Shown here in pieces: positions 1 to 40,876 of a stretch of 64,000 nt of DNA. The first letter of the stretch is position 1. Each line of letters starts with the position of its first letter. Both the position numbers and the translations under genes were made by a program. The notes below the pieces were generated by a model. It saw only the letters and a program-made list of their open reading frames with translations. It did no database searches and had not been told where the DNA came from. Source of the DNA: Azolla caroliniana. Lineage: Eukaryota; Plantae; Polypodiophyta. The stretch lies in the NCBI GenBank assembly GCA_043228905.1, contig JBHGNT010000014.1, positions 6,510,001-6,574,000 of the forward strand, written 5' to 3'.

Positions 1-54
1 TCCTCGCCCTTGCATGATGGCTTTATTTATTTTTTCTTTTTTTGATGACACGTA

Positions 55-3000: not shown

Positions 3001-3714
3001 TTCCCAAATTGCGTCCTGATCCGGGTTCTCACCGGCATCATCCGGGTGCACAATATATGGGGAGATTGCTTCAGTAAAGTCCACTTCAAACAGAGCGACT
3101 ATCTTTGGGTTCTCCTCGAGGTATTGATCTACTTCTTCGTTGGCAAGCCCTTCCAGCATAACATGTTCACGCTTTCTGCATACAACGGTGTTACTTCCTT
3201 GCTTGGGCCTATGCGGGGTTGTGTTGGTACTCTCACCTTAGTTTTCCCTCTTCGGAACGTAATATTGTTCTTCTGCCAGTTTTGTTTAATATGAGCAATC
3301 CGTAACCATGGCCGTCCCAGCAACAACGGATATGCTCCTTGTGCATTCAACTCGAGGACCACCGCGGAAATCTGGAATGGATGGCCTCCGATTGTCACTT
3401 CCAAGTCCCGGATCAATCCGGCCGATCATACGGATCCAGAACGAGCATGGTTCCCATTCCTGGATCCCTAAAGTGTTGCACATTCGTCAGCTTATTACAT
3501 TTACTCCCGATCCACCATCGACAATTGTCCCCAATATTTCTCGTCCTTTGATGATGGCACTGATTGTTGGACTGCTCGTGTCGACCATTGCCGATCCCTC
3601 TTCCGAATTTGAGAAGAACATCGGAGTCGGTGCGGGGCTTGGTGGGGCCAATGCCGATTTTAGCCCGTCGGTGAATCGGGGCAGTAATTGCAGCAATCGA
3701 CCTGGTGGTAGCAT
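55..3714 (-). pseudogene. Element A pol (PR-RT-RH-INT), disrupted
   Basis: ORF fragments 3487-3714, 3129-3416, 2623-3159, 2053-2610, 1319-1696, 439-1029 and 55-243 in gypsy domain order. Confidence 0.92.
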
Positions 3715-4707
3715 GATCTGGCATTCCCGTAGTGCCTACCACGTGGGGTTCTCCTGCTGCATTGTCTTTGTGGGTTCCTCTGATGTTTCCCTTTGCTCTT
3801 CTAGTTTGGTGACATTCCGTTCATTCACTTTTTTGATCCATTCTGTGGCTTGTTTTCAAATTGCTTCCTGAGCCTCCCATTCGGTCGTCGTTCCTTTCGA
3901 CCTGGTAGTGACTTGCTGGATATCGGCCAGCTCTGCGACCACCATGTTGATTGCCGACCATTTTTCGTTAGTCTTCATTGGACACTGATTGTTGTAGTGC
4001 TCGTCCTACCGACAATAGTAGCAATACACCTTCCGTGCATTGCTAGACACTGCTTTTGGCGCGTTACCCGACTGAAAACCGGATACTTCCTGGTTGGGCT
4101 CCTCTATCCTTCTTGCTCCGATTGAGCGCTAGTTAGGCTTCTATCCAGCTCCCGTTGGTAATCCTTCGTCGATTCCCAATGCTCCTCTTTTTGAGCATTC
4201 CGTTTTTTATTATAGCGTCAATTGTTCTGATACCCTTACCGGTGCCCATCATCATCGTCTCCCTGTTGATCCTCTTTCCTCCTGTTGTAGCCAGGGGAGT
4301 AATCTCAATCATAACGATCCTCGTTATAGTCCCAGCTTCGATCATTCTGGTTTCGGTCATAATCGCCCTGTCTATCATTGTATAAGACGTCTTGTATTGG
4401 TTTGTAGCGATAGTCTCACCAAAATCGTTCTTCTTCATCCTCTCGGTTGTTCCGGGTTTTGATGTGCTGGACCAGTGCAGCTTGTCGATTTAGCAGGTTG
4501 TATTCATAGCGGTCCATTGTGTGTGACCGGGAATGGCATAGCATGCACTGCGATCTCATCGTGCACTCTATTGTTGAGTGCCCGGGATTAAGGCACGTCG
4601 TGCATTGGACCGCCTGGCGAAAGCGTAGGTCCTCCTTGATAAGGAGTGTTCTCTGGAGTGCTCCCATTGTCAACCACACACTATTTTTGTCCATCTCCAT
4701 GACCCGG

Positions 4708-5340
4708 TGTCGTGAAGATTTCCGGTTATAGTGTGAAACCGGGGTGGACTAGGCCAAGTCGGTGGTGTGCAACGTGTGCACATGTATAGTAGGAAATGAC
4801 ATATAGAATAAAGGGGAGTATTTGTCCCACATTGTAACGCCCTCCCCTCCTTGGTCTGTAAAAGGAGGGAGAGGTCCCTTGTTAAGGGGTTGCCCATTTT
4901 GAGTCGTAGGGGTATACCATTTTTGTCGAGGGTCTTTTTGTTAAGAGTTTTCTAGGGTTAGTAACTTCCTGTTCTTCTTCTTCTCCTCCTTCTTGAGAAG
5001 TTGAGCGCTGCAACCATGGCAGCAAAGCCGTTAGGGCTAACTTCTTTTCTTCTGAGCGTACCCGGCTCGAAGCCGGGGTTGTATCTTTCCCCTTTGTAAT
5101 ATATACACTTATATCTGTTTGTGCATATTGGTGTTTCTGGTGGTGTCAGGAGCATAGCCCCTTTTGTTTCCTGTGCATAAGAGTTGGCGTCGCGCGCATG
5201 CCCTTTCTCTCTCTCTCTCTCTCGTGTTCGGTTGCCTCCGGGTCGTGTCCGGAGTCGGTTTTCTTGGCATCCCTTTTCTCCCTCGTCCGAGACCCTCATG
5301 GTTCCGCCCCTTCTACACGGACACGCGTAATAACGCGACA
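4708..5340. mobile_element. Solo LTR (633 bp) inserted in element A gag
   Basis: Termini TGTCG...CGACA; flanks CCGG/TCGG (4-bp TSD, 1 transition). Removing it restores gag ...IDQVID-RVMEMDK. Confidence 0.8.
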
Positions 5341-5764
5341 TCGGTCAATGACCTGGTCTATTGTGCTAGCCGAAAATCTATGACCACACACACGGTTCGG
5401 AGGGGTTCCCGGAGCACTGCCAAAAATACCGCTTTCGCTTCTTCTTTTGGTGGTGCTCTGGTGAGTTCACTATGCATGGTCTGGAACCGAAGAACGAACT
5501 GTTGAATGGTTTCTAATGGGTTCTGTCGTTTCGTATAGAATTGCCCTACAATTTCTCTTTGATCCATCCATTTGTGGAAAAATTGTAGAAATCTTGTTTT
5601 TAACTCGTCAAACGTGGCGATGCTGCCAGGTAGGTGCTTAGAGTGCCATCGTGCTATTGGTCCCTCCAAATTCATGCCGAATTCTGGAAATTTTTATCGT
5701 TCGGCCTCTACTTCGGTTAGTTGTTAGGAGACATGGTTCACCTCCCATGTTTGGAGAAACATGT

Positions 5765-6836
5765 TCTCGTGAAGATTTTCGGCAACGGTGTGAAAATTGC
5801 GAGGAACATATAAAATTGAGTGTGGTTCTTCACACACGATATGAAACATAATAGTAAAGATACTATTTTATATTAGTTTAATATTTTGGTACAAAAATAT
5901 GGAGGTCTTCAAGAGCTTTCGAATACACTTTACCACATAAGAAACGAACAACTAAGTGGCAAGTTATGTGGGTATAAAGTTTGCGAAGAAGAAGAGAAAA
6001 AACAAAACTACGAGATATCCCACATAGACAGGACAAATAAGGATCCAAGAGTAAAGAAGGAGGGCCAAAATCTATTACATTGTGTCTATGTGTGGATCAT
6101 AGAATGTTCAAGGTGACTTGAGCAAAACTAATCGGATGAGTGGGTGTGGCCTAATTACTTGTAAAGGTTTTGGATCTGGCGAGACGGCAACTAGCGACCG
6201 AGATTGGGACTGGATGGCGACAGACCGGATCGGATCAGGATTGGATTGAACCGGTCGGGACAGACGGATCGGTCGGTTGATCGCGGTGCATGGTGTTTTG
6301 AAGATTTTCGGTGTAAATACAAGAACAAAAGCCTAGTAGTATTTTGTGTTTTAAAAGGGATGTGAGCAAGGCTTGAACCTTGCACCTCCACGTTGAAAGT
6401 CAATTAGCTTACCACTGAGCCAAGTCATTTCCTTAAAATTATATTTTTATCATTATATTTTTACATGTAAATTCTCATACATGAGAGATTAGATGATGAC
6501 ATGGCAAGCATGCATTACATGCATGTCTTGCACCCTCACATGCACCATATGCAAAGGGGCATCTATAAAAGAGTGGAGGAATCAAGCAAATGAAACTAAT
6601 GAAAAATTTGGGAAAAATAAGAAACTTGTAATCCTATTGGTGATGTATCTTCTCTCTTAAATCTAAAAGTTAAAAGTTCAATCTTTATCTCAATATCTCT
6701 CTTTCATCATATCAATCACTCTCAATCTATCTTAAATACTTTCTCGCTAAAGTTAGTGCAAACTTCGAATCCTTCCAGTCCCGGACCCCGGTGGTTCCAC
6801 CTCACGATCCGCACATAGTGACGAATCTCCACGACA
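5765..6836 (+). mobile_element. Solo LTR (1072 bp) inserted in element A gag
   Basis: Starts T(C)TCGTGAAGATTTTCGG (similar to the 4708 LTR start) and ends CCACGACA. TATA-like CTATAAAAG ~6563. Removing it restores gag ...EAHLYA-FLQTWEVNHVS. Flanks ATGT/GCAT fit a CpG-decayed 4-bp GCGT TSD. Confidence 0.72.
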
Positions 6837-7463
6837 GCATATAGGTGGGCTTCCACGTTTGGGTCATCCCGATACTTCGGATATTGGTACGACATTGTGT
6901 CATCTTCTTCTTGTGTTGTCGGGGTCGGTGTCAGAACTTGCTCCTCCTGTTCCATTGGTAACTCCGGTTTTGGTGTCGGAACTCGCTCCTCCTCTTGGTG
7001 GTTTGTGCCATTCATTTGCTCCAGAGCTTCCGATTTTGTTATTTCTGGCTCCGGTGTTGGTATGTGGTCCAACTCGTCGTCTTCTGGGTCGTTTGGGGCA
7101 TTGTGGCTACTACGATAATTCGATTGGACGTTGTGTTTGCCGTCCAAATCTGATTCGATGGCGGAGAATGCTTCCGAACCGCTATCTCTTGCGACAAGTG
7201 TCTGTAGAATGGACTCCGCTTCCTGCAGACTGCTCAGACTACTTCATTCGTCCGGGTGGTGGTTCTGTTGCAATCAGAGTGACTCCTCTGCGACTCGCCG
7301 AATCATTCTGGAAAAAGACCGATCCGACCAAATCTCCTCCGCCGCCTATTGGTAAGCCTCCCGCTTCCGCAATGTCTCGGCCAGTCTTTTTGCTCGTTCG
7401 GCGACTGGGTCGTTTGTTGGCCTAGTCATCCATTCCCCCGATGTTCACTACTTTCTCTAGGAA

Positions 7464-7475
7464 TCCTGGTCGCCA
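7464..7475 (-). promoter_or_regulatory. Element A primer-binding site (TGGCGACCAGGA), tRNA-Arg-like
   Basis: TGG-starting motif 4-6 nt inside the LTR. The first 9 nt match my recollection of the plant tRNA-Arg(UCG) 3' end. Confidence 0.6.
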
Positions 7476-7479
7476 AAAC

Positions 7480-7872
7480 TGTGTTAATCCTGGGTTGGAC
7501 AAGCCACTAACATAGGATGTCATTCCGGAACACTTCACCAAAGGGGTGGTATGGTAAGGGATGGAAGGACCATAATGCAAAGTCGTCCCTCTTCCGATTG
7601 TTATCCGGATCGATTAGTTACGTGTGTAGAATAAACATTATTAAGCACAGAACGGAAATAACATGGTAGACAATATATGAAAATAACATCACTCCTCTAT
7701 TCATTATCCGTCTCTGATTACATCATATCCGGATCCTTTTATAGGTATCGGGCTGTGTTACAAACCGGTCTGGATCCGGATCGGCAAACCGATTCTGGGT
7801 CCATCCGTTCGATCTAATAATTATAATAATTAATTATTATTACAACTCCCGTTATCCCAAAACCGGCCAACA
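7480..7872 (-). repeat. Element A 5' LTR (~390 bp)
   Basis: TG...CA termini adjacent to the PBS; minus-strand TATAAAAAG ~7735-7743; copia gag sequence begins immediately at 7873. Confidence 0.7.
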
Positions 7873-8204
7873 TGAGCATCTATTTTGTCTGGTCTTGCAT
7901 CTCCGAACTGTATTGGCAGTCAGAGAATTTTGACCACCAACATGTCCCTCATCTTCGACTTCCATACTGGGTAGTTGGAGCCGGTGAGCTTGAACATGTT
8001 GTTGAATGGATCTTCCATGCTCTAATACCAGATTGATAGGAATAGTGCTCGGCCTCAACCAAGTCTCAAACACTCAATGGAAAGATCAAACAAAACAAGT
8101 AGATAGATACACACTTGCACACGATATAAGACTACACAAAGGATTAACGTGGAAACCCCTAATAAGGAAAAACCATGGGAGCCAATAGAATCCAAACAAT
8201 TCTA
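7873..8204 (-). mobile_element. Element C: Ty1/copia 5' remnant (gag start, PBS-Met, inner part of 5' LTR 8034-8204)
   Basis: Minus strand MEDPFNNMFKLTGSNYPVWKSKMRDML (copia gag N-terminus) from 8018. PBS TGGTATTAGAGC at 8019-8030. LTR edge at 8034. Interrupted by element A (left) and the TIR element (right). Confidence 0.8.
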
Positions 8205-8494
8205 GGGTGAAACCATCCGAGTGGAAACAATTAGCTATGTGATAGCTATGCAAAAAGCTACCATTGATAAATAGTCATTTTTGCAAAAAGCTACCGTTGA
8301 TAAATTAGCTATGCAAAAAGCTACCATTGAAAATAGTAGAGAGTTTTAATTATATAAATGAGCACCATAAATGTGCACCATAAATTATATACCGAATTCC
8401 TAGGTTCATTATGCATGATCCTTTGCCACATCACGTGGGCCATCTCTAGTTGAGTATTCTCGCTTAGATTACTACCACTGTCGCTAAACCCTAT

Positions 8495-9283
8495 TGAGTC
8501 CACTCCTCCATTGCCGCCATTCTACACTCAGTTACCGGCACTGTGTGGTCCAACTATCATCTGCCACTGTTCGATTCGACACAGTTCACTCCTCCATTGC
8601 CGCCATTCTACACTCAGTTGTCGCCATTGTTCAGTCCAAGCATCAGTTGCCAAGTTCACTCCTCCATTGCCGCCACTCTACACTCAGTTGCCACTACTGT
8701 GAAGGTCGTATATTGCTGCCACTTTTCGATTCGACGGAGTTAACTCCTTCTCCACTGCCGCCATTCTACTCTCAGTTGTCATCATTGTGCGTTCCAAGCA
8801 TCATCTGCCACTGTTCGATCTGACCAGAGTTCACTCCTCCATTGCCATCATTCTACACTGAGTTGCCGCTACTATTCGGTCCTGGATTGCTGCCACTTTT
8901 CGATTTGACATAGTTCACTCATCCATTGCCATCATTCTACACTTAGTTGCCGCTACTATTCAGTCGTGTATTGCTGCCACTTTTCGATCCGAGGGAGTTC
9001 ACTCCTCCACTACCACCATTGTACTCTTAGTTGCCATCACTGTGCGTTCCAAGCATCATCTGCCATTGTTCGATCTGACGGAGTTCACTCCTCCATTGCC
9101 ATCATTCTACACTCAGTTTCCGCTACTGTTCGGTCCTGGATTGCTGCCACTTTTCGATTTGATGGAGTTCCCTTATCCATTGCCATCATTCTACACTCAA
9201 TTGCCGGTATTGTTCGGTCTTGTATTGCTGCCACTTTTCGATTCGAAGGAGTTCACTCCTTCTCCACTGCTACCATTCTACCA
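8495..9283. repeat. Minisatellite, ~84-86-bp unit, ~9.5 copies
   Basis: Core CACTCCTCCATTGCC(G/A)(C/T)CATTCTACACTCAGTT recurs at ~8501, 8587, 8657, 8742, 8832, 8916, 9000, 9086, 9170 and 9254. Confidence 0.9.
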
Positions 9284-9630
9284 TTTAGCTAATTAGCTAT
9301 TGTATTAAACTATGGTAGTAGCTTAGCTAATTAGCTACTCAACTAAACTATGGTAGTAACTAATTGGCTACCACTTAGCTAATTAGCTACTGTACTAAAC
9401 TATGGTAGTAGCTAATTAGCAACCACTCAGCCAATTAGCTACTAAGCTAAAGTATGGTAGTAGCTAATTAGCTAAGTGGTATCTAATTAGTTATTGTACT
9501 ACTATGGTAGTAGCTAATTAGCTACTGTACTAAACTATGGTAGTAGCTAATTAGCTACCACTTAGCTATTAGCTATTGTACTAAACTATGGTAGTAGCTA
9601 ATTAGCTACCACTTAGCTATAGAGCTAATC
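9284..9630. repeat. Palindromic satellite array 1 (TAGCTAATTAGCTA-based, ~52-bp higher-order unit)
   Basis: Repeated TAGCTAATTAGCTA separated by CCACT or CTGTACTAAACTATGGTAG. Confidence 0.92.
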
Positions 9631-9671
9631 AATATGTCTATTTTATTACACAGGTCGATTTATTTATTAGG

Positions 9672-10646
9672 TTCAGGCGAATGCATCCAAATATCAAAGT
9701 TCAACTACGAACATTCGAGTCTCTTAAGCCGCACTTTGAGAGACGCTTGAAGGATCGATGCACATGTTGTTACATTTATCATGTACAAATGGGTTTTGTC
9801 AAGGACTCTGTTAATCTACTATGTCACCATAGTGCCTCTCTAACTAACGGAGTTTGCACTTGTGTGTGCCCAATTTGTCGATCGAGCCTGCATGAGCATT
9901 GTAAATCATCTGAGCATGTTATCTCTTCCATGAGTTGTCTTTTAGATTCAATATTGTGTCTGAGAGAAACTGAGGCCATCTTCCACAGTCATAAATGTGT
10001 CATGGGTTTATGTCAAGATTGTGGCCCTAGTAGATTTAGGTGGTGTCCAAATAAATTGAGTAGTGAAATATTAATCTCTGACAAGTTATTTGAGTCAATT
10101 GACACCAATTTCGAAGGAAAGGTGTGTAAAAGAAAGGATCTAGTTAGGAAGTCGCTTAAACTAAGGGATTTGGCATCCCTATTTGTAGTATCTCTAGCAA
10201 AGTTCATTAAACACAACTTCATTTATTCATGGCAAGCCCATCAATTTAAGACTTGCATATCTGATTTTCCAAATGATGTAGTAGTCTCAATAGTAGATTT
10301 CGCAGAGAATTATACTTTCAAGCAACAGAATGAAATTCAATCTATGCATTGTTGGTGTTCAGCGCAAGTAACCATTTTTGTGCACATAACGTATTTTCGA
10401 GTTTCAAGTGATGTTGAAAAAGTAATTCATTTTTTTATTTCTGATGATAAGAAGCATGATACCTTGTTTATTAGCTAAAAGTTTGGAGCTTACTCAACAT
10501 TGGGTCTGCTCTGATGGAGCTGCGTCACAATTCAAGGCTAGACGTCCATTTTATTTTATGGGGAGATATCCTGCTATAACAAGTTTGGAGATGAGATTGA
10601 ATTTTTTTGGGTCTGGCCATGGTAAAGGTGAACGTGATGGTGCAGG
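9672..10646 (+). pseudogene. Sola2-like transposase, N-terminal Cys-rich and catalytic part
   Basis: ORF 9681-10478 (CTCC, CVCPIC, CQDCG, VDFAENY...EIQSMH...ISDDKKHD) and 10444-10646 (WVCSDGAASQFK...NFFGSGHGKGERDGAG), cut by element B. Confidence 0.85.
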
Positions 10647-11061
10647 TGTTACCGATTAGGAACATTGTCTACTCTCAGTCCTTCGAGGTAGACTTCAAGG
10701 TGATTGTGGTGCAAGGAATAGATGCGTAGGTGCGCGAAGCGTAACAGGCTTACAACCAAATCTCACCAGTGTGTGATCTCATATACACATTTATCCTATG
10801 CTTACTAGCCCACAATTACCAACAAAGTACTACACTGAATCAGAAGACGACTTACAAAGACACGAGAATCAGAGAAGATAGTATTGTATTACAAAAGGTA
10901 GCTCCCTCAAATACACGCTAGTTCTTTACAAAGTATTTCTGCCCTTTATATACACAGGGCTTTTAGTTCGTTACACTCCTAGCGTGAATGGTTACATGTG
11001 TTTCTTTAACGCTTCTAATAATATATTCTACTCGTCTAAGCGTTAGGTACGACGGACAACA
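10647..11061 (-). repeat. Element B 3' LTR (415 bp)
   Basis: TGTTACCGATTAGG...GGACAACA matches the split copy at 17806/23531; TATATAAAG lies on the minus strand. Confidence 0.92.
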
Positions 11062-11063
11062 CT

Positions 11064-11080
11064 TGGCATGCCTGTGGGAC
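11064..11080 (+). promoter_or_regulatory. tRNA-Arg-like PBS motif occupying the PPT position of element B
   Basis: TGGCATGCCTGTGGGAC 2 nt inside the 3' LTR; no purine tract on the element's sense strand here. Confidence 0.7.
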
Positions 11081-11081
11081 A

Positions 11082-13944
11082 GTGCCATGGCACGTCAGAC
11101 CCGTCCCTCTACTCATCGTTCAAAATGTCCAAGATGTTCGGCTCCGTCCGTACAGCCTGGTCCGGAAGCGGCCTGACGTTCATAGGTGCTTCATTGTTTT
11201 GCTCGACCGGCTCCTCCAATTGCATGTCGTCCACTTCACCACGTTCAGCCGGTGTGTGAGTTCCCATGTTGTCATCTGTACTCTGTGTGATCAGGTTCGG
11301 CTTAGTTGGTTTGATGTCTGGATCATTCCTTCGAGGTTCTGGCGTGGGCTCTTCAGTCTGTGGGCAAGTGGTCGGAGGGGTTCTTCCCTGTTTGTTTCTT
11401 CCGTAGTGTTGACAAGCGTAGTGGTCACATCCGGTGGGTTGTTCGAATTGGGCTGAGGTTCATCTTGTTCAGCGGAATCACTATCTGGTAACGTAATCGT
11501 CTCCGTCCTTTGTTGTTCATTGCCGATCTCCATTTGCCGGCAGAAAATATCTTCCTGATTTTCCCCAAAATCTTCCAATCACTTGTTGAGTTCTTCGAAG
11601 TGTTGGTCCGCTAGCGTGCGATAGTCCTGCGTGACGTCTTCGCGTACTGCTGCAATGCTTTCCTCATTGATCTTGTAGATTCCTTTGCCTTTTTTTTGTC
11701 GGTTCTCCCAATCCGCCCGGTAGGTGTGCAATTCTACTGCTTACGTTGCCCACGCCGTCCATCCTTTGTCCAATGCCGCTTTCAACTGTGCCATAAACCG
11801 CTTGCGATTTGTTTGAAGACTTGGACGCGTACATTGTTTGTTATTGATTGGGAGCGGGTTTGCGCTTCGTCTAGGGCTTTCTTGAGGTTTTTGATTTTAT
11901 GCTTATTGGTCATAGCCGTCTCCTCATAGAGCCTCTTCATCTTCGTCCATAATTGGGATTCTTTCAAGTGTAGTTCCTTGAGCCGGCCCATTTCATTGTT
12001 CAGGCAGACTTCTACCTGATGCTTCAGTTCCCATTCCCGCACAAAGTGCTCGTCCTACCATGCTTTCTTCCTTTCCAATAACTCTCAGAGTCCCGTGATA
12101 ACGGCTTTGTCTTTTGGGCTTCCTCATGCAGCTTCCTGTTTTCTTTTTTTGTGCGGGTATGCGCTGCTGTCTTAGCCTTGAGCTTATCGTCCAGTGCTTT
12201 CACCGCCCTTTGTCCTTTTGCCTGGACATCCTTTTCTCTGTCTGATGATTGGCGCAGTTCCGCGCAGAGGCGGTCAATCTCGGACTCGGCTAACTGCATA
12301 GCTCTTTTTGCTTTTGTGGTGATGGCGGTTTGTGCTTCGACCTCCTCCCGCAAAGTCGTCATTGTGTCATCGTTAAATGCCAATCCGGGGTTTTGCTGCG
12401 TTCTAATTTCGCAATGCGCTCTTGGGCCTTCTGTAGTTGGGTTTGAGTCAGCTTGACTGTTTTCAAGACATTCTTATTTTTGATAGCCATATCTTTCGCT
12501 CCCATACTGACTGTGGCCAACTCCCTATGTACTTCGTCGAGGGCCGTATTCAATGGGGGTAATTCAATGCCCATGCGGCGAATCCCTACGGTCCGTTGTC
12601 TGCCTATCTTGGTGAGGAGTCCCTCATCGTCGCTTTCCGCCGTTCTCGTCAGTGCACACTCAATCATTTGTTGTTCTGTGTGCTCCTCGGCCATTCTCTG
12701 GGACACCTTGATCTGTTTTATCGCCAAAAATTCCATGAGTTCGTAAGTCGTCCCAAACTGTAACAGTGGGCCGAACTCATGGACCGTATCCGGGATGTCT
12801 CGATACTTGAGGACTTCGCTTGCTGCTGTGAGCACTCCTTTGCCACGTTGTGACTGAGCCGTAATGATCGGTTGTGGTTCCCGGATTATCTCCAATGAAG
12901 TTATGTGCTCCATAGGGGCGGAAGTGTCGACTGGTGTGACTGTGTCTTTGACCAGTCCGCGGCCATCCTTCCGATCTAATCTTCGTCGTTTTGGCCCGGG
13001 GCTTTCATGGTTTTGTTCCGTTTCTTGCGTAGTCGTTGTTGTTGGTGCTTCGACCGGCCTTGCTGGTTTTTCCAACTGCAATGATTGCGCTACAGAGTAG
13101 GAAGGTTGTGGTCCTCTTCCCATTCCGTGGTTGCCAATTCCGATAACTATCGTTTCGTGGATCGTGGCGGAGGCGTAGGTTTACTAGGCGGTGGGGCGGG
13201 CAGACTGCGAGGCGGAAATAGTATTGTAAGGTACTAATGTATAATCGACCTTAGCCTTTTGCCAGCCTGGTATGCGTGCAGGCCCAGTCTTAGTGTTGGT
13301 CCCGTAATCACTCCCCAATCTACTGTGCGCCCTTCAAATGTATCAATGATAATGCCTGCCTTTTGTTTTGGCATCCCGTACGCGTTGACGTGCACGCAAC
13401 CGACCTTAAGTAGGAACTTGGCTATCTCCCGAAAGAATGGGTTCGGGATGTGTTTCCTTCTGTATGCCTTGGCTGATACAGAGTATTCCCCAAAATATTC
13501 TTCTAGAGTTTCTATAGGGGGGTTGTCGAAGTGTTTCTCCCCAATCGCAAATAGGTCCAATTTTTTCCGAATGGTGGTGTTTGTCATAGTGTCCATGTTG
13601 AGCTTCTTGGCAATGTTGAGAGCATCAGGGTGTGATGGTGCCTCTACGACCCTGATGTACCCCTCAAAACCGTTTTCCAGGAGCCATCTGTGTAAAGTTG
13701 CAGAGATGGGGACCGGCATCGTGGGTGGAAGAAGCTCATGTAGAATAGGTGAAGCTCTGAAACTACGGTGATCGTGGACTCTATGGTATGGTGGGGAGCG
13801 CGGAGGGCAAGCAGAGTTAGTCTGTTTTCTATAGTGTGCAAAAAACCTTCGTTTTCCCTCTTTTTGTGCTCTAGGGTTCATTGGCTTGTGTGACATCGTG
13901 GTGCTGCGTGTGCCTGATCTTGAAGTTTGTGCATGCATAAACAC
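11082..13944 (-). pseudogene. Element B extra ORF downstream of integrase (globular N-domain, Pro-rich linker, long coiled coil), frameshifted
   Basis: Consecutive minus-strand ORFs 13234-13944, 12359-13123, 12024-12383, 11782-12042 and 11291-11578; heptad-rich E/K/Q/L segments. Confidence 0.7.
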
Positions 13945-14036
13945 CTTTTAATAGTCTTGACTATCTTCTCTTTTTCTTTTTTCTTTTTCAACGGTATTAC
14001 TATTACATTTTATTACACGTGGGTTCTAGCTACTTA

Positions 14037-17000
14037 TTAGTGCAGGGACCTCTCTGTTGTGTTAGTTACGGCGTGAAACGGGTTCGGGGGCGTAGGTCCC
14101 AGATAAGGTTTTAATCGGAACCCATTCACTTTTTGCCGAAGTATAACTCCAACGAGGCTACCCAATTGGAAGGTGCCATTTTCCGCTCCAACTATGCAAT
14201 ACAACCCTGTCCAGCGGAACCGTAACTTATCTGGCATTTGACCCATGCGTGTTTGAAAGACCAATACGGCCTTCCCAACTGCAAATCATTTCTCCCGTAT
14301 GCCCCGATGTCGATCCACGAACACTTTACGCCGTCGCTACTCTTGCTCGAGTATGGCCATACTATGGACCCGAGCCTCGCCTAATTCGAGAAGTTGTTGT
14401 TGCCGTATTTGCTACGACTTGCCTTCTGACAATCGGTCTCGTACTTGAATTCTCAAACTGGGCATTACGGCTTCTAGCCCAATAGCTAGCTGGAAAGGTG
14501 TGGACTATATGCTAGTTTTGTAACTGGTCCGATATGCCCACAAGGCGCTGTGCAACTTGGTATCCCAGTCTATTCTATTCTCATTCACGATCTTTTCCAT
14601 TATGGTCTATAAGGTCTTGTTCGTGGACTCTGCTAACCCATTCGCCTGTGGCTACGAGAATGTATTTATTGCCGGTCCGCGACGTTGCCGGCATAAAGGT
14701 ACCGACAAAATCCACACCCCATTTATGGAATGGATCCAGCAGAAGAACCGGTTGGTGCAGCATCCGTGCAAGCTCCGGTTGCCCCAACCGTTGACATAGA
14801 TCACACTGCCTACATTATTGATACGCGTCGTTCTGCATGGTTGGCCACCGTAGACCTGCTTACCATATTTTTTGTGTCATAACAACGCCCGTGTAATGGC
14901 CCCCGGCCGTACCGCACTGAGCTTCGCGCAGAACGACTTCCTTTTCATCCTGGCATATCCTGTGTCGCCAAATCCCATCGTTGCCCTTGTGGTAAAGTAC
15001 TCCTTCGACCAGGATAAAGTTTAGACTATGGACAACCATGCGTTTCTTGGCAGTCCCATGGTTAGAAAGTACGTCATTTCCACCAGCCAACGATCCGGAA
15101 AATTCGTTTCTGCTTGTGATGCCATAGTCGCGGTCCTTAGAATGTCAGCGTCAGGAAAGTCATCATCGTCCCTCACCGCATTATAGCCATTATCCACTCT
15201 GCTTAAGAAATAAACTACGACATGCTTCGTGCCCGACCGATGATGAATTGTGAAATTGAAATCCTAGAGCAGCAACATCCATCTGGCCAGCTTCCCTGTT
15301 AGTGCTTGTTTCTCAACTAGATATAGTAACGCCGCGTGATCTACGTGAAACGTAAATCTACACCCTAGCAGATAATGCCGGAATTTGTTGATGCAATATA
15401 TCATCCCCAAGACTTCACACTTGGTCATGGAGTAGTTCCTCTCGGTAGTTGATAGTTTATGATTGGCGTAATAAACCGGTCTGTACCAACTCGGCTCTGT
15501 GAGTTGCATTAATGCGTTGCCTATTGCTATATCTGAGGCATCCACAAAGACATGAAAAGATTGAGTCCAATCTGGTGGTTGTACGACCGATGCTTGGGTT
15601 AACATTATCTTGAGTGCGTCGTAAACTTTCTCTTCTATTGTCGTCCACTTGAAGGGCGTTCGATGTACCACGATGTGTAATGGGATCGCAAACTCCGCCA
15701 AGTACCGTAACATGTGGCTATGCCATCGTATTTGACCCAGGATGCGGCTGAGGGCTTGGGCATTAGTCAGAGTCTTTGCTTCAATGATCGTCGTGATTTT
15801 GTTCGGATTCACCGTCCTTGCTTACGATGTGTCTAAGAAGTGCCCCACTAGTGACGCCAAATGCACATTTGGCCGGATTAAGGCAGAGGCGTGACGTACG
15901 ACAACGCTCCAAACAAACTCGGAGATGGCCCAAATGTTCGCCTTGAGTTCCATATACCGTGAAATTGTCGAGAAAGACTTGCATAAAGGCGGGTATGTTC
16001 TCCCCGAAAATCTCCGTAATAGTTCGCTGGAACGTGGCAAGCGCCGTCTTTAGCCCAAACATCATGACCACGGCGATGAAAACACCCCACTCCGTGACGA
16101 ACGCAGTCTTCTCCTGGTCGTTAGGGTGCATGCATACCTAATTGTATCCACTAAAACCATCTAGAAAACTATACATGTCATGGCCCGCGACCACGTCTAG
16201 TACGCTATCGGTGAAGGGTAAGGGGAACACATCCGTTATCATTACGGCGTTAAGCTTACGATAATCCACGCAAACGCGGATTTTACCATTTTTCTTTGGT
16301 ACCACAACTATCGAGCTTAGCCATGTGGCCTGCTTCACCGGCCGGATAAACCCTGCTTTTAGAAGTTTGTCAATCTCTTCTTTTACATGAACCGCATAAT
16401 TCAAGTTCATCCGATAGCGACGTTGTTGCATTGGCGGTGCCCCTTATGTGATTCTCCACGACCTGCCGGAATCGTGGCACTAGTCGGAGAAGCTTTTCCA
16501 TGGTCATTGTTATCTCACAGTCTGCCAATGCTTGCCATATGGGATCTAGTGAGGATGTATTTTCTTTCATTGGCAAACTGTCGTTTACGAACTCGTGCTT
16601 CATACGCTCCGCATTTACCACATTTGCTTTTTATATCCAGGCCTAGGCTGCCTTGCGTATCTCATCTCATTCTGCCCAGTCTGCATTTTTCGCTTGTTGT
16701 CGTGGTGTGACTTGTTGGACTTCTGTCGTGATGGTATTCACGGTTGCCTCCTTTCCTTTTCGATGTGGGCACTACATCGTGTAATGACCGGGTTGTTAAC
16801 ACACGAAACAGAGTGCGCTGGACTCACCTCTTTCCATTTTTGGAGGTGTATTAGTTTCCATCGGTACTGCTTGTTCATCCCGGTTATGCTGGAGTCGCTT
16901 GTTATTCCGGGGTTGTTGAGTCACCTGTTATTTCGGGGTTGTTGACGGTATTCTTCTCATGGCTCTTGAACGGTCGTCATCTAAACTTTCGTCATAACAA

Positions 17001-17503
17001 CGTTGGTCCTTATGTTGTCAATTGTGTCTGTTTCGACGGCCCCTGTTGAATCCTCGGCGAAATCGATGTTCCTCGTCCTGAGGCAACGCCTGCCGTAGCG
17101 ATGCCATGGACAGGCCCTCATCTTCTTCCCCTAATTCGAGCTGTAATGCTCGCTCGATGACCATGTCAGTTGTCTCCCCTTTCACACTGTGCATGTTCAG
17201 CGTCGTCCGGAGAGGCCATCTAAGAGCTGCCAAGAACGTTTCCTTCACCTCTTCGTCTGTTGGGGCCCATGTAAGGTTCCGTCGTAGGCTCTAGAAATGT
17301 AGACTGAAATCCGCTATGGATTCTGTGGGAAGTTGCTTGATGGTATAGAACTGCCCAATTATTTCACGTTGTGGCATCCTCCAATGAAAAAAACGCAATT
17401 GTGGCACCCTCCGTTTAAACAAAGCATCTATTTCTCCGTTGAAGTGGGGGTATAAGAAAGCCATTCTGGATGTTGTGGTGACAATCGGTAGGGGAACGAA
17501 CAC
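14037..17503 (-). pseudogene. Element B gag-pol remnant
   Basis: RT (FLDGFSGYN, 15781-16431), RNase H (VDASD, 15264-15812) and integrase (14037-15090). Gag end joins the pre-RT region directly at ~16440, lacking the protease seen in element A. Confidence 0.9.
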
Positions 17504-17786
17504 TCCTGTTTTCTCGATGTGGACTATTGTGGCGTTTAATCACACTACCTTGGTCGTGTGGCGACAGGGTTTCGTGGTCGACGTCATGCTATTCTGTGAG
17601 CATGGAGTCTACTGTGTACTCCTGAAAGGAGTAGTCGTGGTCGCTAAGGCGAGGTTTTCGCTTCGCGCGCTCTTCTATCTAGCAAGTGATAAACCTTGTC
17701 AGTGGTCGATCTTGTCGGGTCAGTTCTCTAACCCGTCTACGGCTAGTCATCCATACCTTGCTGCTCGTCTGTGTTGAACCACAAAT

Positions 17787-17801
17787 CCACCAAGCGTGCC
17801 A
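17787..17801 (-). promoter_or_regulatory. Element B canonical PBS TGGCACGCTTGGTGG (tRNA-Arg-like)
   Basis: 4 nt inside the 5' LTR, upstream of gag. Confidence 0.75.
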
Positions 17802-18179
17802 AAAGTGTTACCGATTAGGAACACTGTCTACTCTCAGTCCTTCGAGGTAGACTTCAAGGTGATTGTGGTGCAAGAAATAGATTCGTAGGTGTTATGATAT
17901 GGCAAGACTCGACCCCATGACCTTATACTACATGGGTCGAGCTCTTACCATTAGACTATGTATTGTAATACAAAAAATATTATTTTCATTTAAGTTTTAT
18001 TATAGGAAATTGATGTATATTCTCGAGTTCTTTGGAACATTCTAGAAACTTCAGGAGTACTGCTGACAACACTATAAAAAGAGGCACAAGGCATTATTTT
18101 GAACCAAATCGGTTCAACGTCAGTCTTTAGCCTCATAGCCCTTTGTACTTACTTTTCCTATAATATATAATTTGTTATC

Positions 18180-18183
<4 letters not shown>

Positions 18184-18264
<81 letters not shown>
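18184..18264. repeat. (CT)n microsatellite in element D 5' LTR
   Basis: ~40 CT units; much shorter and interrupted in the 3' LTR. Confidence 0.95.
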
Positions 18265-18270
<6 letters not shown>

Positions 18271-18419
18271 CTCTCTTCCTCTCTCGGGAGTCTTACGCAG
18301 TCCCGTCCTCTTAGTACTAATTCTCTCTCTGTTTTAGTACTATTCCTGACAATTTGAACTGACTTTTTCTTCTGTCTCCCTCCCTTCATACTAACCTCTT
18401 ATACCTCTTTTCTTTCATC

Positions 18420-21400
18420 AACAATTTTGAAGAGTTTATAGGTGAGTTCAAGGCATGTTTTGGAGATACTGACAGTAGAAGGACCGCAATCAACAAAATC
18501 TGGCGATTACGACAAGGTGACTGTCTAGCCTCCGCATACGCTGCAAATTTCCGCCTAGTTGTCGCCGATATCCCTTGGGATGATCAAGCGTTGATGGAGC
18601 AATTTCGTTATGGTTTACGCAACGATGTCAAGGATTTACTCGTGACCTTCCCCAAAGAGCCAAAGTCCTTAATAGAAGCAATCAGTCGCACGGTGAGATG
18701 TGACAACTGGCTCTTTGAGCGACGTTCGGAACGACAACTACAGATGCCGAGGGCAAGATCAGAGCCCACCTACGCCTCAGTGGTAGCAAAACCTTTTCTG
18801 AGGGAGTCATATAATGCGCCTCCAGTGAATACTCCGACTCCGATGGAGATTGACACTACATGTCATCGAGGGCCATTATCCGAAGAAGAAAAGCAGCGAC
18901 ATTGAGCAAATCGACTATGTCTTTATTGCGGTGGACCAGGGCATATTGCAATAAATTGTCCCCATAGGCCAAGGAGACAGGTAAACCAAATAGTTGCTAG
19001 TACTAATTGTACTAAACTCGAGTCTGTTTCAGTAGGGATATCTGATAGTCCTCATAGTCCTAATAGTACCAATAGCCCAAATCTAGCAAACAAATTTGAT
19101 GTCCTTAGTCAATTAGAAGAAGAGTTAAACGACTAAGTCCAGCCAAAATAGGAGCCGTTTGGTTGGACAGCCCTAGATCTGTGCAGCCCATTAGTGGTTC
19201 TATTCCCTCTAAGCAAGTTAGCAATGTGTTCATAGCCCAAGTAGCAGTTAGTACTAAAAGTACCCCTCCAGTACATGTCCTAGCACTTCTAGATTCCGGA
19301 GCTAATTCTTGCTTCATGGATAGGAAATTTGCCCAAGCTCATCAAATATCTCTCAGAAAACTCCCGTGTCCTACCTCTGTAGTAGTCATTGATGGTCGTC
19401 CCATTGCTTCTGGAAATATCATAGAAGAGTCAGAGCCCATTAATATTGTCCTAGATAATCTAGCATGTGACGTATCATTTAATATAATTAGCATCCCAGA
19501 ACACCCCATTGTCTTAGGATTACCATGGTTCGAATTACATAACCCAGACATAGATTGGCGGACAAGAGAAATCCAACATCGAAAAGCCCGAGGGTCTACT
19601 CATGAGATTGCAACGATTTCACTACATCAGTTGCGTGAGGAAGGATGCAAGGAAGAAATGTTCCTCTTCGCAATATCAGTAAAACCCTCCAACACCACTA
19701 AAGAGGAATCCACCATTCAACTTCCAGAGAAGTATGATCATTATGCCGATGTGTTTGATAAAGTACAAGCCAATACGCTTCCTCACCATCGACCATATGA
19801 TTGCCCCATCGATTTACAACCTGGGAAAGAGCCACCATGGGGACTAATCTACAATCTGTTACCAACCGAACTGGAAGTCCTTCGAGCCTATATAGAGGAG
19901 AATTTGGAGAATGGTTTCATACGACATTCGAAATCTCCAGCCGGCGCACCCATTTTCTTCGTCAAGAAAAAGGATGGCTCACTTCATCTCGTTGTAGATT
20001 ATCGTGGCTTGAATAAGGTTACAATCCGAAATAGGTATGCACTTCCCCTTTTCTCAAGACTTTTAGAACGGATCAATGGTGCCAGGTTCTTCACGAATAT
20101 CGACTTACGGGGAAGCCTATAACCTCGTACGGATCCGACCAGGAGATGAATGGAAGACCGCGTTCCGCACCAGATATGGGCACTTCAAGTATACGATCAT
20201 TCCGTTCGGCCTCACTAATGCGCCAACAGTCTTCCAGCACATGGCAAATGATATTTTCCGAGATCTCTTGGATGTGTGTCTAATCATCTATTTGGATGAT
20301 CTACTGGTTTACTCAAAGACCCAAGAAGAGCATGATTCTCATGTACTATTAGTACTAAAACGACTTCGAGAACATGGTCTTTATGCGAAGCTGGAAAAAT
20401 GTAGTTTCGGCTGCAACCAAGTGGAATTTCTCGGCTATGTGATTTCCTCAGATGGCATCTCCATGGACCCAGCTAAGGTCAAAACGGTGGTAGAATGGCA
20501 GACTCTGCATTCGGTGCGGGATGTGCAATGCTTTCTAGGCTTTGCCAATTTTTACCGGAAGTTTATAAAGGATTACTCAAAGCTCGGTTTGCCTCTTACA
20601 CAACTTACTAGGAAGGGACAATCGTTCGTTTAGTCTGAAGAAGCGGACATGGCTTTTGAGAATCTTAAAAAGGCATTTACATCGGCTCCGATTCTAGCTC
20701 ACATTGATCCAGAAAAACCATTCATCATCGAAGCGGACGCATCGGATTTTGCATTGGGGAACATTCTATCACAACGAGGTAATGATGAAAAGCTACATCC
20801 TGTGGCTTTTCACTCACACAAGTTTGACGCCGCCGAAATCAACTACGAAATTCATGATAAAGAGCTATTGGCTATAGTGGACTCTTTTATGCAATGGAGG
20901 CATTTTCTAGAGGGATCTTCTCATCAAGTCACTGTATTCAATGACCACAAAAACCTCGCCTATTTTCAAGACGCTCGTGTGTTAAATCGACGTCAAGCTC
21001 GGTGGGCCCATTTTCTCACGCATTTCGACTTCAAGATTACATATCGACCTAGGAAGCACCAAGGGAAAGTAGATGCATTATCACAGCGTTCGTACCTAGC
21101 ATCGCGTCCCGGCGAGCCAGCTTTCGACAACCAAAAGCAAGTAATCTTGGGACCGGCAGGCACGATTGCAAGCAACACAGGTCTTTGGCATGCCCATGGA
21201 TTCCCACGTTATCAATATCATACATGCAAACCTGAAGACAGATGCTTTCGCCCAAGCTATACTAGCACAAATTGATCCCTCTCGAGCGTCGTGTTCACAG
21301 TATCAACCACCAGGTATGGACTATCGGCAATTCAAATACCATGATGGATTACTCTTCTTTAAAGAATTTTTGTGTGTTCCTAATGGTTCTTGCCGCCTTC

Positions 21401-22716
21401 GAGTAGTACAAAATTGTCATGACACATATACAGTTGGGCATTTTGGTAGTACTAAAACATTAGATTTAGTACAAAGATCATTCTGGTGGCCCCATATGCA
21501 ACAATTTGTCGAAGATTTTGTTCGGACTTGTGATACATGCTACAGAGCGAAAATGCAAAGGCATCATCCATATGGTTTATTAGAACCATTACCAATTCCA
21601 AGCAAGTCGTGGCAATCCATTGCTCTAGACTTCATCACAGATCTTCCAATCTCTAAGGGGTTCAATGCGATTCTAACAATGGTAGATCGATATACGAAGA
21701 TGGCTCATTTCTTTCCATGTACTAAGGAAATCTCCAATGAAGACACCGCTGAAATTGTCATGCGTGAAGTATGTCGGCATCATGGACTTCCCGATAGTAT
21801 CATCAGTGATCATGAACCCCAATTCGTGTCAAAATTCTGGAAGCACGTTTTTAAAATGCTCAAGGTCACTTGTAACCTCTTCTCCGACTACCACCCACAA
21901 ACCGACGGCCAAGCCAAACGAACAAATCAAACGCTGGAGGAGTATCTGTGGTGCTTTCTCAGCTATCATCAGGATGACTGGGCAAATATCCTCCACTTCG
22001 CCGAATTTGCCTATAATAACTCTATGCATGCATCGACTAAAGTTATGCCATTTTATGCTTATACGGGATGTCACCCCCGGTGGTGTGTACTTGAAACCCC
22101 AGAGGTGTCCACAAATCCTTGCACGGAGGATCGATTGGAGCAGTTATGCAAGATACAAGCGGATTTATCTACTCATCTCCAGCAAGCTCAACAAACGCAC
22201 AAGGTCTACGCGGATCGTCATCGACTTCCATCTAGTTTTAACATTGGAGATCGGGTGTGGCTGCTACGACGACACATCAAGACTACTCGCCCATGTGAGA
22301 AGTTGGATTATCGGCGATTAGGTCCTTTCTGTATTATCAAAAAGATTAATGATGTCGCTTTTCGTCTTGATCTACCTCCGCAACTTCGGATGCATTCGGT
22401 GTTTCATAGTTCTCTCCTCGAACCCTATCACGAGAGCACCATCTCAGGACGTATTATACACCCTCCACTCCCGATCAAGCTTGAAGATGGACCGGAGTAC
22501 GAGGTTGCCGCCATCCTTGATTCCAAGATTGTTCGCAACAAGCTCTACTATCTAGTCGATTGGCTAGGATATAGTCCTAGCGAACGTACTTGAGAACCGA
22601 TCGAGAATTTGACCAATACTCGTGCTCTTCTTGAATATTTCCATTGTCAATATCCACACAAAGCAGGTCCTCAATCCAAAATGACTCGTGACACTCGTCG
22701 TTTTAAAAGGAGTATA
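18420..22716 (+). pseudogene. Element D gag-pol with chromodomain, disrupted
   Basis: ORFs 18591-18905, 19163-20122, 20076-20633, 20649-21275 and 21166-22593. Confidence 0.93.
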
Positions 22717-23549
22717 GTTTCATGATGTGGCAAGACTTGAACCCATGACCTTACGCTACATGGGTCGAGCTCTTACTATTAGACTATGTATTGTAATACA
22801 AAAGATATTATTTTCATTTAAGTTTTATTATAGGAAATTGATGTATATTCTAGAGTTCTTTGGAACATTCTAGAAACTTAAGGAGTACTACTGACAACAC
22901 TATAAAAGGAGGCACAAGGCATTATTTCAAACCAAATCGGTTCAACGCCAGTCTTTAGCCTCATAGCCCTTTGTACTTACTTTTCCTATAATATATAATC
23001 TGTTATCATTATCTCTCTCTCTCTCTCGTCCTCGCTATCTCTCTCTCTCTCCTCTTCTTTCTCGAGAGCCTTACGCAGTCCCGTCCTCTTAGTACTAATA
23101 GTACTACCCTTCTCTAGTACTAATTCTCTCTCTGTTTTAGTACTATTCCTGACAATAGGTGCGCGAAGCGTAACAGTCTTACAAAGCAAAGTGTATCGTC
23201 TGGATGTGAAGGGAGATGGCTACAACCGAATCTCACCAGTGCATGATCTTATATACACACTTAACCTACGGTTACTAGCCCACAGTTACCAACAAAGTAC
23301 TACACCGAATCAGAAGACGACTTACAAAGACACGGGAATCAGAGAAGATAGTATTGTATTACAAAATGTAGCTCCCTCAAATACATGCTAGCTCTTTATA
23401 GAGGATTTCCGCCCTTTATATACACATGGCTTTTAGTCCGTTACACTCCTAGTGTGAACCGTTACATGCGTTTCTTTAACGCGTCTAATAATATATTCTA
23501 CTCGTCTAAGCGTTAGGTCCAGTGGACAACACCAACAGACAACACCAAG

Positions 23550-24198
23550 TTCTGTTATAAAGCGGGCACTTACCCATGAACAACTAAATGCAGATGGTGT
23601 GCAGATGAATTGTGCAGCACATGTAGTTCAATTTTTAAGAGCTAATATGTCAACGAGTGCAATTGGTGTTTATTCCTCGCAGGTCCAAGATATCAAACGT
23701 GAATTTTGGGAAGTGAAGATAGATTATGTAAATAGGGAGAAGACTTGGGAGTGCCAAGGAATTTCCGAATTGCGATCTCTCCATGTTCTTCGCAATTATT
23801 CTAGGTTGGATGGTCATTGTATTGCGGTCAAAGAATTAACTTGTCTTTGCTTCCATTGTGTGCAGGGAAATTGGAGGTATTGTTTAAACAAAGCATATAT
23901 TCCAAATTGGGAGTATCATACATTGAACGATAAGGAAGCAGTTGATTGAGAAACAAAAAAGAAAGTTGACTTCACATATCAAGGACGTAAAGATACTCTA
24001 AGTGATGTCTTAAATGTTGGGGATAATTTCACTGTAAATGCAGAAAAAGGCGATTTAGAGGGTGCTAATTTCTATATATTGAAGTGCATGGTTAGTAAAC
24101 AGTGTGCAACGCAGAATATATTAGATGCTTGGGGAAATGTTGTATCTACTGGGACATTCTACATCGAAGGTAAATTTTATGCAAGACTAAATGATTAT
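23550..24198 (+). pseudogene. Sola2-like transposase, continuation after element B
   Basis: Rejoins in frame as ...GHGKGERDGAG-SVIKRALTHEQL...; includes ORF 23599-23949 (LTCLCFHCVQGNWRYC); cut by element G. Confidence 0.82.
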
Positions 24199-40779: not shown

Positions 40780-40876
40780 CCTAGAAATATATCACTTGCT
40801 CCATACTCTATTTTTGTTGTTCAAATATATATATAAATATATATATACATAGCAAAAGACAACCACATCAGCATTA

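Follow-up and report, generated by a model that had tools for sequence, protein, structure and literature searches.

A conserved two-part putative tRNA-binding site probably replaces the polypurine tract in a plant non-chromovirus Ty3/gypsy family

The window, i.e. the whole stretch of 64,000 nucleotides from Azolla caroliniana that was analysed, contains an LTR retrotransposon (element B) with the following features:

10647-23531, minus strand: element B, its 5' LTR split by a nested element
10647..11061, minus strand: 3' LTR of 415 nt, reading TGTTGTCC...GGTAACA on the minus strand
near 10942-10955, minus strand: TATA-like box, about 106 nt inside the U3 end of the 3' LTR
11062..11063, minus strand: 2-nt spacer separating the tRNA-like site from U3, AG here and GG in many relatives, spaced as for a polypurine tract (PPT)
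11064..11080, minus strand: 17-nt copy of a tRNA 3' end, ending in CCA, at the position of the PPT
11081..11094, minus strand: 14-nt insert with a short inverted repeat, splitting the tRNA copy
11095..11104, minus strand: copy of the T-arm 5' strand and T loop (tRNA positions about 49-58)
11109..13719, minus strand, as pol: long extra ORF downstream of the integrase, broken in element B
14067..16440, minus strand: pol with RT, RNase H and integrase, containing stops and frameshifts
16445..17398, minus strand: remnants of gag and zinc knuckle (tblastn with P0171)
17787..17801, minus strand (17801-17787): canonical primer-binding site (PBS) TGGCACGCTTGGTGG, 4 nt inside the 5' LTR (LTR end 17806)
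17806..17889, minus strand: U5 part of the 5' LTR
17890..23154, plus strand: nested chromodomain-bearing Ty3/gypsy element (chromovirus) in the 5' LTR
23160..23531, minus strand: U3/R part of the 5' LTR

The LTRs of element B are direct repeats with TG...CA ends, and 382 of 415 aligned letters (92%) are identical. An earlier note on this DNA had given 11062..17805 as the extent of the element; this has to be corrected to 23531, because the nested chromovirus (17890-23154) interrupts the 5' LTR. The chromovirus is flanked by a 5-nt duplication (GTAGG/ATAGG) and lies outside the family of element B. The target-site flanks of element B itself are GCAGG on the left and, on the right, a 13-nt tandem duplication followed by CCAAG (3/5 match). 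The minus orientation proposed earlier is borne out by the gag-pol ORFs and the TATA-like box, and a wrong orientation was rejected since every ORF and the TATA lie on this strand. A chimera of two elements was rejected, too, as the LTRs match and the 5' and 3' sites occur together on the single contigs L004, L005, L008, L012 and L015.

The minus strand encodes gag, RT, RNase H, integrase and the long extra ORF, with the domain order RT-RNase H-integrase known from Ty3/gypsy (Metaviridae). Between gag and RT about 300 codons are absent, including the protease. The extra ORF, which comprises about 816 aa in relatives, ends with a stop codon at 11111-11109, 4 nt ahead of the T-arm block. A Pfam search gave no family for it; Atlas matches of 0.79-0.84 (PMD, DUF1985) serve as leads only. 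We found no chromodomain in the pol of element B, and no Pfam family of the additional archaeal-type RNase H (aRH) in the pol of L009 or in P0171. From the end of RNase H to the integrase zinc finger there are about 107 aa, as in P0182, which leaves no room for an aRH. RNase H keeps the usual D-E-D-D residues without any specialisation visible by eye, so that the lineage-specific change the earlier note proposed to look for was not seen.

The PBS lies 4 nt inside the 5' LTR, as described before; the related element A has a different one. The arrangement LTR-CGTT-PBS was seen in five relative loci that also carry the 3' site, thus both sites coexist in these families. The 5' junction (LTR-PBS) is furthermore present, in diverged copies, in public runs of three organisms.

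Instead of a PPT, the tRNA 3'-end copy precedes the 3' LTR. The plus strand at 11064-11080 reads TGGCATGCCTGTGGGAC and the sense strand GTCCCACAGGCATGCCA, confirming in position and sequence the earlier observation of a CCA-ending tRNA-like motif 2 nt from the 3' LTR with no purine run. The 17 nt cover tRNA positions of about 59-76, one C of 65/66 being absent, and the tRNA likeness reaches upstream to 11104, beyond the stretch recognised earlier. The longest purine run in the 30 nt ahead of the 3' LTR is 3; three further LTR elements in the window have runs of 9, 10 and 9, and the nested element one of 8 (by eye). On minus-strand cDNA the site reads as a primer-binding site. Among 6733 plus-strand positions within element B, only the start of the site has TGG together with at least 9 of the first 11 PBS letters.

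We collected 24 related metagenome loci, 16 of which end before the 3' LTR. All eight that reach it carry the same site 2 nt from U3, with a longest purine run of 3-4; these loci are kin from one series of assemblies and do not represent eight independent events. A PPT before the 3' LTR, a feature of Ty3/gypsy (Metaviridae), is thus absent from element B as well as from 8/8 loci, and no readable relative has the normal PPT that the earlier note had named as a refuting observation. The LTRs of the relatives are 55-57% identical to those of element B and 69-89% among seven of the loci. The site is conserved far above the adjoining LTR: 14 of its 17 positions are invariant over the eight loci and element B. 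The 3' junction is also present in public runs of three organisms, where the site in diverged copies continues into the same 3' internal sequence. For these runs, 40 of the 163 rows of variants and 32 of the 2420 pieces were listed, so that host copies bearing a PPT may exist. The reservation of the earlier note that the feature rests on one degenerate copy no longer applies, as diverged copies in the public runs and the eight metagenome loci carry the site; for the same reason a one-off rearrangement was rejected. No relative turned up in scans of viral contigs that used RNase H, pol and two junction patterns. A scan of prokaryote genomes with the junction pattern gave two matches in bacterial contigs, in which no tRNA was called and which we took as chance.

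The match to the tRNA has a second part. From the site alone a T-arm block can be predicted (the reverse complement of CCCAC plus TTCGA), and this block was found with 9/10 matching letters at a fixed distance of 13 nt in 8/8 loci, versus 0/508 control windows. In the decayed element B 6/10 letters match. The position corresponding to tRNA T55 varies, being A in seven loci and G in one. The insert between both parts comprises 13 nt of the type GCGC-NNN-GCGC in relatives. Variants at 11097 and 11103, within the T-arm block, are among the 40 of 163 rows listed from the public runs.

Such a split copy resembles the capture of tRNA positions 49-76. It might be the relic of an old copying accident: RT would have continued into the primer tRNA, and the resulting copy, once fixed at the 3' end, would today be retained for recognition by integrase or as a small-RNA decoy. 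The plus strand would then start from an unrecognised upstream purine run or from random RNase H fragments. Purine runs of 9-18 nt do occur 108-398 nt upstream in all nine copies, but they fall inside the extra ORF and at differing places in each copy. Moreover, the U3 end (TGTTGTCC, 2 nt from CCA) is exact in 9/9 copies and so calls for a primer that ends precisely at this point, and the strong conservation of the site relative to the LTR is at odds with a relic. We regard this explanation as improbable.

The earlier note compared both motifs to tRNA-Arg(UCU). An Arg type is likely, with TCT and CCT both candidate anticodons. The site varies at one CpG and, within the acceptor stem, at positions 67/68. 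Its GAG form pairs 7/7 with the 5' strand of Arabidopsis Arg-TCT and the AGG form 7/7 with that of Arg-CCT, or with Gly-TCC when two G-U pairs are allowed; this comparison covers the acceptor 5' strands of Arabidopsis rather than those of the host (PMC5389709 Tables S2/S3). ARAGORN called no tRNA in the window or in four loci, and a scan of viral contigs for the tRNA-end pattern yielded five matches, one of them a called tRNA (Ser), none usable as host tRNA. In the literature searched, the letters of the motif were found only in unrelated primers and in iPBS primer 2237, whose match is limited to the last 9 letters.

Instead of a tRNA, the element's own PBS could be the partner of the site. 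The RNA ends might circularise in this way (for packaging or the first jump), or the 3' end of the minus-strand DNA, a copy of the PBS, might fold back and self-prime the plus strand. A PBS-site duplex of about -20 kcal/mol is possible in element B and four loci, and in Ty3 and Drosophila gypsy the primer tRNA connects the two RNA ends according to the cited passages (PMC5371799; PMC1635307). However, the PBS departs from the tRNA sequence after 14-15 nt, leaving the conserved GGGAC and the T-arm block without a partner. In L004, L005, L012 and L015 the site has GAG yet the PBS stays CCTG, i.e. there is no compensation. Self-priming of DNA would presumably also yield a covalent hairpin needing an unknown nick. 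Pairing with the PBS is thus hardly to be expected.

We consider it likely that this plant non-chromovirus Ty3/gypsy family has replaced its PPT by a conserved two-part putative tRNA-binding site, and it seems rather probable that plus-strand synthesis is primed by a host tRNA-Arg annealed there to the minus-strand DNA. The data consist entirely of DNA contigs, from the sequence of which we infer priming. As the sense RNA has the sequence of the tRNA, the tRNA can pair only with minus-strand DNA, its 3' end pointing toward U3. A first tRNA would start the minus strand in the usual way, at the 5' PBS. Following the first jump, RNase H would clear the genomic RNA off the site, and a second tRNA would pair with the exposed minus-strand DNA via its last 18 nt (one C bulged) as well as via its T-arm 5' strand and loop, whereby a 13-14 nt DNA hairpin would loop out in between. 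RT would extend the CCA end across the 2-nt spacer and the LTR up to the PBS, RNase H would remove the second tRNA, and the second jump would complete the DNA. The two extra letters at U3 would be trimmed by integrase, as after a PPT. The site is one C short of the standard tRNA end and varies at the position of T55, and RNase H shows no visible specialisation; these points count against tRNA priming. Furthermore, a tRNA on DNA might be a substrate of RNase H and be cut before priming, and a GC-rich fragment of genomic RNA would presumably have to be removed before the second tRNA pairs.

Two options had been offered in the earlier note, a second tRNA on minus-strand DNA and a tRNA-mimic fragment of the genomic RNA; the split T-arm and acceptor-strand matches favour the former over the latter. 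With a genomic RNA primer, RNase H would cut the tRNA-like stretch behind its CCA, using the specificity by which it also takes off the primer tRNA, and the piece left over, perhaps folded to mimic a T-arm (GUGGG paired with CCCAC, enclosing the inner hairpin), would prime the plus strand like a PPT. Although the position and the 2-nt spacing equal those of a PPT, the junction RNA folds no better than shuffles (z -0.35 to 0.21) and the T stem is absent from the predicted folds of relatives. Neither a second tRNA nor displacement of RNA would be necessary and the missing C would be tolerated, but variation tracking two tRNA-Arg acceptor stems is unexpected for a private primer. PPT sequences differ among elements and co-evolve with RT in the cited passages (PMC3185511), yet pyrimidines make up 50% of the stretch, in which it differs from RNase H-resistant tracts. 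At 11103 the variant seen most often in organisms A and B, among the rows listed, would break a T-stem pair in cis but merely turn the pairing with a tRNA into G-T; this argument is weak, C>T being the commonest change in these copies. Altogether a genomic RNA primer appears unlikely.

Returning to priming by a second tRNA, the chances seem about even that a widespread retrotransposon lineage of non-seed plants has dropped the PPT and uses host tRNAs as primers for both strands. For the second strand, the tRNA would bind a bipartite site of the minus-strand DNA that derives from the captured T-arm and acceptor strand of a tRNA, and in some families the two strands would rely on different tRNA-Arg species. 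The cited passages take plus-strand priming from a PPT to be general among retroviruses and LTR retrotransposons (PMC12789967, PMC5371799). If true, this would be an unusual way of copying an LTR element, and a successful multi-species lineage lacking the PPT would show that tRNA priming on DNA can take the place of this step. Both strands would be tied to the host tRNA supply and to tRNA-fragment defences, and the family would offer a natural system for asking what a plus-strand primer must be. Annotation tools that require a PPT, or orient elements by the PBS, will miss or flip such elements.

In a quick RT-RH tree, built without lineage-labelled references, element B joins sequences of liverworts and ferns and stays outside the angiosperm set; its neighbours with a name are Riccia, Marchantia and Adiantum. 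As far as described in the cited passages, Athila and the 'zero-structure' Tat Z1/Z2 share with the family of element B the order gag-PR-RT-RH-INT, an extra ORF after the integrase, the lack of chromodomain and aRH, and a spacer of several nt before the PBS (PMC6317226; PMC13468544; 10.64898/2026.03.20.713144). Athila has a tRNA-Asp/Asn PBS and a conserved PPT junction (97% in Brassicaceae), neither of which is found in element B, whereas the family of element B has an Arg-type PBS and no PPT (same sources). The aRH of Tat (TatI-III, Ogre, Retand) is absent from this family. Tat Z1/Z2, compared here by description only, likewise lacks an aRH, has an RT basal to Tat and occurs in non-seed plants (PMC6317226). 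Phygy, a non-chromovirus clade of Physcomitrella, resembles element B in its non-seed-plant host, the lack of aRH and a similar size class, but is described with a tRNA-Trp PBS in 81%, a 4-nt NCGN target duplication and no extra ORF (PMC6317226). Element B differs in its Arg-type PBS and its long extra ORF. The chromodomain, self-priming and Tcn1 clade RT of chromoviruses (Tcn1) were not found in element B.

That a tRNA binds in two parts across a loop is known from Ty1 (PMC5371799). According to the cited passages, Ty1, Ty3 and Drosophila gypsy carry a segment complementary to the tRNA on the genomic RNA, which aids minus-strand priming, and keep the PPT (PMC5371799; PMC1635307). In the family of element B, in contrast, the sense RNA has the same letters as the tRNA end, CCA included, so that a tRNA can pair with no strand but the minus-strand DNA, and no PPT is left. 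For Belpaoviridae a normal PPT is listed (ICTV Belpaoviridae profile).

A tRNA-type site replacing the PPT as in this family was not found in the literature searched, a reported precedent in Tas aside. A Tas variant of Ascaris lumbricoides, reportedly described by Aeby et al. in 1986, is said to carry an inverted copy of a tRNA-Arg primer site in place of the oligopurine tract. Tas is reportedly a Bel/Pao element of this nematode, the copy stemming from duplication of a 5' segment in one variant. Compared with such a duplication in a single variant, the site in the family of element B is lineage-wide, split and separately evolving.

The window is repeat-rich plant DNA with nested LTR elements, and the Ty3/gypsy retrotransposon studied here, element B, comprises the following features:

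10647-11061, minus strand: 3' LTR
11109-13719, minus strand: extra ORF after the integrase, decayed in B
17801-17787, minus strand: tRNA primer site (PBS), 4 nt from the 5' LTR
17806-17889 and 23160-23531, minus strand: 5' LTR, in two pieces
17890-23154: chromodomain-bearing element splitting the 5' LTR

Gag remnants, RT, RNase H and integrase lie on the minus strand of B, as does a long extra ORF, in agreement with the orientation and the PBS position (4 nt inside the 5' LTR) proposed in an earlier note. The coding region is decayed by stops, frameshifts and a deletion taking out the protease; the LTRs are identical at 382 of 415 aligned letters. B was inserted into a decayed reading frame (9606-10646 and 23545-24190) carrying a GHGKGExDGAG motif, which we take to be transposase-like; Pfam gave no match for its part 9606-10478. 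The target-site duplication is blurred by a 13-nt tandem duplication (23524-23549), which covers it together with the outer LTR end. Further repeats are two Tcn1-like chromoviruses (17890-23154, LTRs about 85-94% alike; 34176-39830, 99%), an LTR pair hosting the younger of them (33851-45420), a copia element (24199-30012, LTRs 97% alike) and tandem arrays at 8497-9609 and 32509-33806 with units of 84-87 nt and 52 nt. The 52-nt unit, partly palindromic, is found in both arrays.

Two nucleotides before the 3' LTR, at the PPT position, the sense strand of B reads GTCCCACAGGCATGCCA (11064-11080), a 17-nt copy of a tRNA 3' end. The tRNA-like CCA end lies where the earlier note had placed it, and a purine tract is indeed missing: purine runs within the 30 nt preceding U3 reach no more than 3, compared to 9, 10 and 9 in three other elements of the window subjected to the same test. 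An opposite-strand PBS match of this quality occurs at 1 of 6733 positions inside B, namely at the site alone.

The observation no longer rests on one degenerate copy. A motif-independent alignment search of metagenome contigs with the extra ORF as query yielded 24 loci, 16 of which stop before the 3' end of the extra ORF or of the element. The eight reaching the 3' LTR, which are kin from one assembly series, all carry CTGTCCCAC(AGG or GAG)C(G/A)TGCCA, 2 nt and TGTTGTCC. A normal PPT, which the earlier note proposed to look for in other copies, is absent from all eight (purine runs of at most 4). Five of them run on through the LTR to CGTT and the PBS TGGCACGCC (CCTGGTG legible in four), indicating that these families have the two sites together. 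Across B and the eight loci 14 of the 17 site positions are invariant. The LTRs of these loci show 55-57% identity to B and 69-89% among themselves (seven compared); over the 20 nt leading up to U3 and the 10 letters that open the LTR, the match to B is 85-90%.

In public sequencing runs, 814, 848 and 706 contigs matched 10880-11300 at 80% likeness in three runs (organisms A, B and A, respectively); a run of organism C gave 40. What follows draws on the entries listed for the 3' junction, namely 40 variant rows out of 163 and 32 pieces out of 2420, one run (X1) possibly being the source sample; depth was never taken as copy number. At position 11069, 82-96% of summed depth among these rows has C in place of the T of B, which restores the PBS-like TGGCACGCC. 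The site is joined to the same 3' internal sequence in pieces with 31-42 differences from B (X1 record 3; X4 records 26 and 27), and one piece (X3 record 18) spans LTR, site and interior. Listed pieces of organism C cover only the LTR tip and the site (11051-11090), with other LTRs attached. For the 5' junction (17690-17889; 659, 813, 549 and 128 contigs in organisms A, B, A and D), several diverged pieces connect interior, PBS and LTR; PBS position 17793 varied in 14-28% of depth. The tRNA site at the PPT position is real and open to mechanistic tests, and its conservation extends over families and several organisms.

According to PMC5389709 (Tables S2/S3), the Arabidopsis tRNA 5' ends GCGCTCG and GCGCCTG belong to Arg-TCT and Arg-CCT. 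Among 14 Arabidopsis 5' strands from this source, Arg-TCT pairs best with the GAG form of the site, and Arg-CCT with the AGG form and the relatives' PBS (each 7/7, 6 Watson-Crick). Gly-TCC also pairs 7/7 with the AGG form, two G-U pairs included. Judged from these pairings the matching tRNA is likely a tRNA-Arg, which may have either anticodon; of the tRNA-Arg(UCU) suggested earlier the arginine part is thus likely, and the anticodon would fit the GAG form. At four loci the best Arabidopsis acceptor match of the PBS differs from that of the 3' site.

The tRNA match of the 5' PBS extends over just 14-15 nt. Next to it, in B (17765-17786) as in relatives L004, L005, L012 and L015, comes a small hairpin of the TGTG-N6-CACA type. 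The commonest PBS form differs from host to host (CTTG vs CCTG). The related element A (1-7990, minus strand; 3' end outside the window, LTR-like insert at about 4700-5300) has a PBS unlike that of B, TGGCGACCAGG, 4 nt after the 5' LTR, by eye an Arg-TCG-type acceptor end.

Since the sense RNA itself equals a tRNA end, a tRNA would be unable to bind it, but could bind the minus-strand DNA copy. There its CCA 3' end would be aimed at U3, 2 letters off, which is the geometry of a PPT and favours tRNA priming. A test independent of any tRNA sequence concerned the T arm: the 3' strand CCCAC demands a 5' strand GTGGG, followed by the T loop TTCGA. This 10-mer was found at 9/10 in all eight loci, with a constant distance of 13 nt between it and the site downstream. 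Of 508 control windows, each 40 nt long, none scored 9 or higher and three scored 8. Mismatches fall mostly at the T55 position, and a short inverted repeat forms the insert between block and site. In B, 6 of the 10 block letters match and the insert is 14 nt long; its match would rise to 8 with the variants that prevail at 11097 and 11103 (85-91% of depth in the rows listed). A loose-end line of organism C shows 9/10 by eye (agreement 0.67). Thus tRNA positions 49-58 and, after a hairpin, 59-76 minus one C fill the stretch from the extra-ORF stop to U3, together with a 2-nt spacer.

The plus strand is therefore probably primed in these families by a host tRNA-Arg, which would pair with minus-strand DNA by two segments, the DNA hairpin being looped out between them; we infer priming, primer removal and trimming alike. 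Of the two primers considered in the earlier note, a second tRNA is thus the favoured candidate. The main rival, a tRNA mimic within the genomic RNA cut at CCA by RNase H, would account for the missing C of the site; it is unlikely, as it gives no reason why the site tracks tRNA acceptor variants, and RNA folding of the junction showed no fold above chance. Lineage-specific RNase H changes, also raised earlier, are not seen by eye in locus L009, whose enzyme keeps D-E-D-D and resembles that of other gypsy elements. Pairing of the site with the element's own PBS is conceivable in principle (about -20 kcal/mol). It does not explain the GGGAC and T-arm blocks, however, and shows no compensatory changes, making it improbable. 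Equally doubtful is a relic site with plus-strand synthesis begun from a hidden upstream primer, which fits the exact U3 end poorly.

The extra ORF is intact in relatives (about 816 aa) and shares the EPxILDILxxE end with B. In the relatives (P0003, L004-L015) a conserved 215-aa N-terminal domain and a basic KKRR motif are found, with a long coiled-coil-like part and an acidic tail to EPGILDILxSE. It has 494 matches among 50% representatives and no Pfam family; weak Atlas leads point to the plant mobile domain.

The named pol neighbours of B are proteins of Riccia, Marchantia and Adiantum (47-55% identity; angiosperms 35-44%). In a quick RT-RH tree of 46 rows, built without lineage-labelled references, B pairs with L009, which also carries an intact Tcn1-like pol (7738-11391), and falls with element A into a 6-row group (SH-aLRT 100) amid liverwort, fern and other sequences, separate from the angiosperm set and from Tcn1-like elements. 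The B family has neither aRH nor chromodomain. Among the papers listed by full-text search, which covered few subscription journals, no account of a tRNA site in the place of a PPT was seen. An Ascaris Tas variant reportedly carries an inverted tRNA-Arg site where its purine tract would be, so the idea may already have a printed precedent.

In make-up B resembles the aRH-less Tat Z groups. It differs from Athila in PBS and PPT, and from Phygy in PBS and extra ORF, as these groups are described in PMC6317226. The second tRNA sites of Ty3 and gypsy differ from the B site in their opposite polarity and the additional presence of a PPT (PMC5371799; PMC1635307). The putative two-segment holding of the tRNA in the B family can be compared with Ty1, whose PBS is likewise in two parts (PMC5371799).
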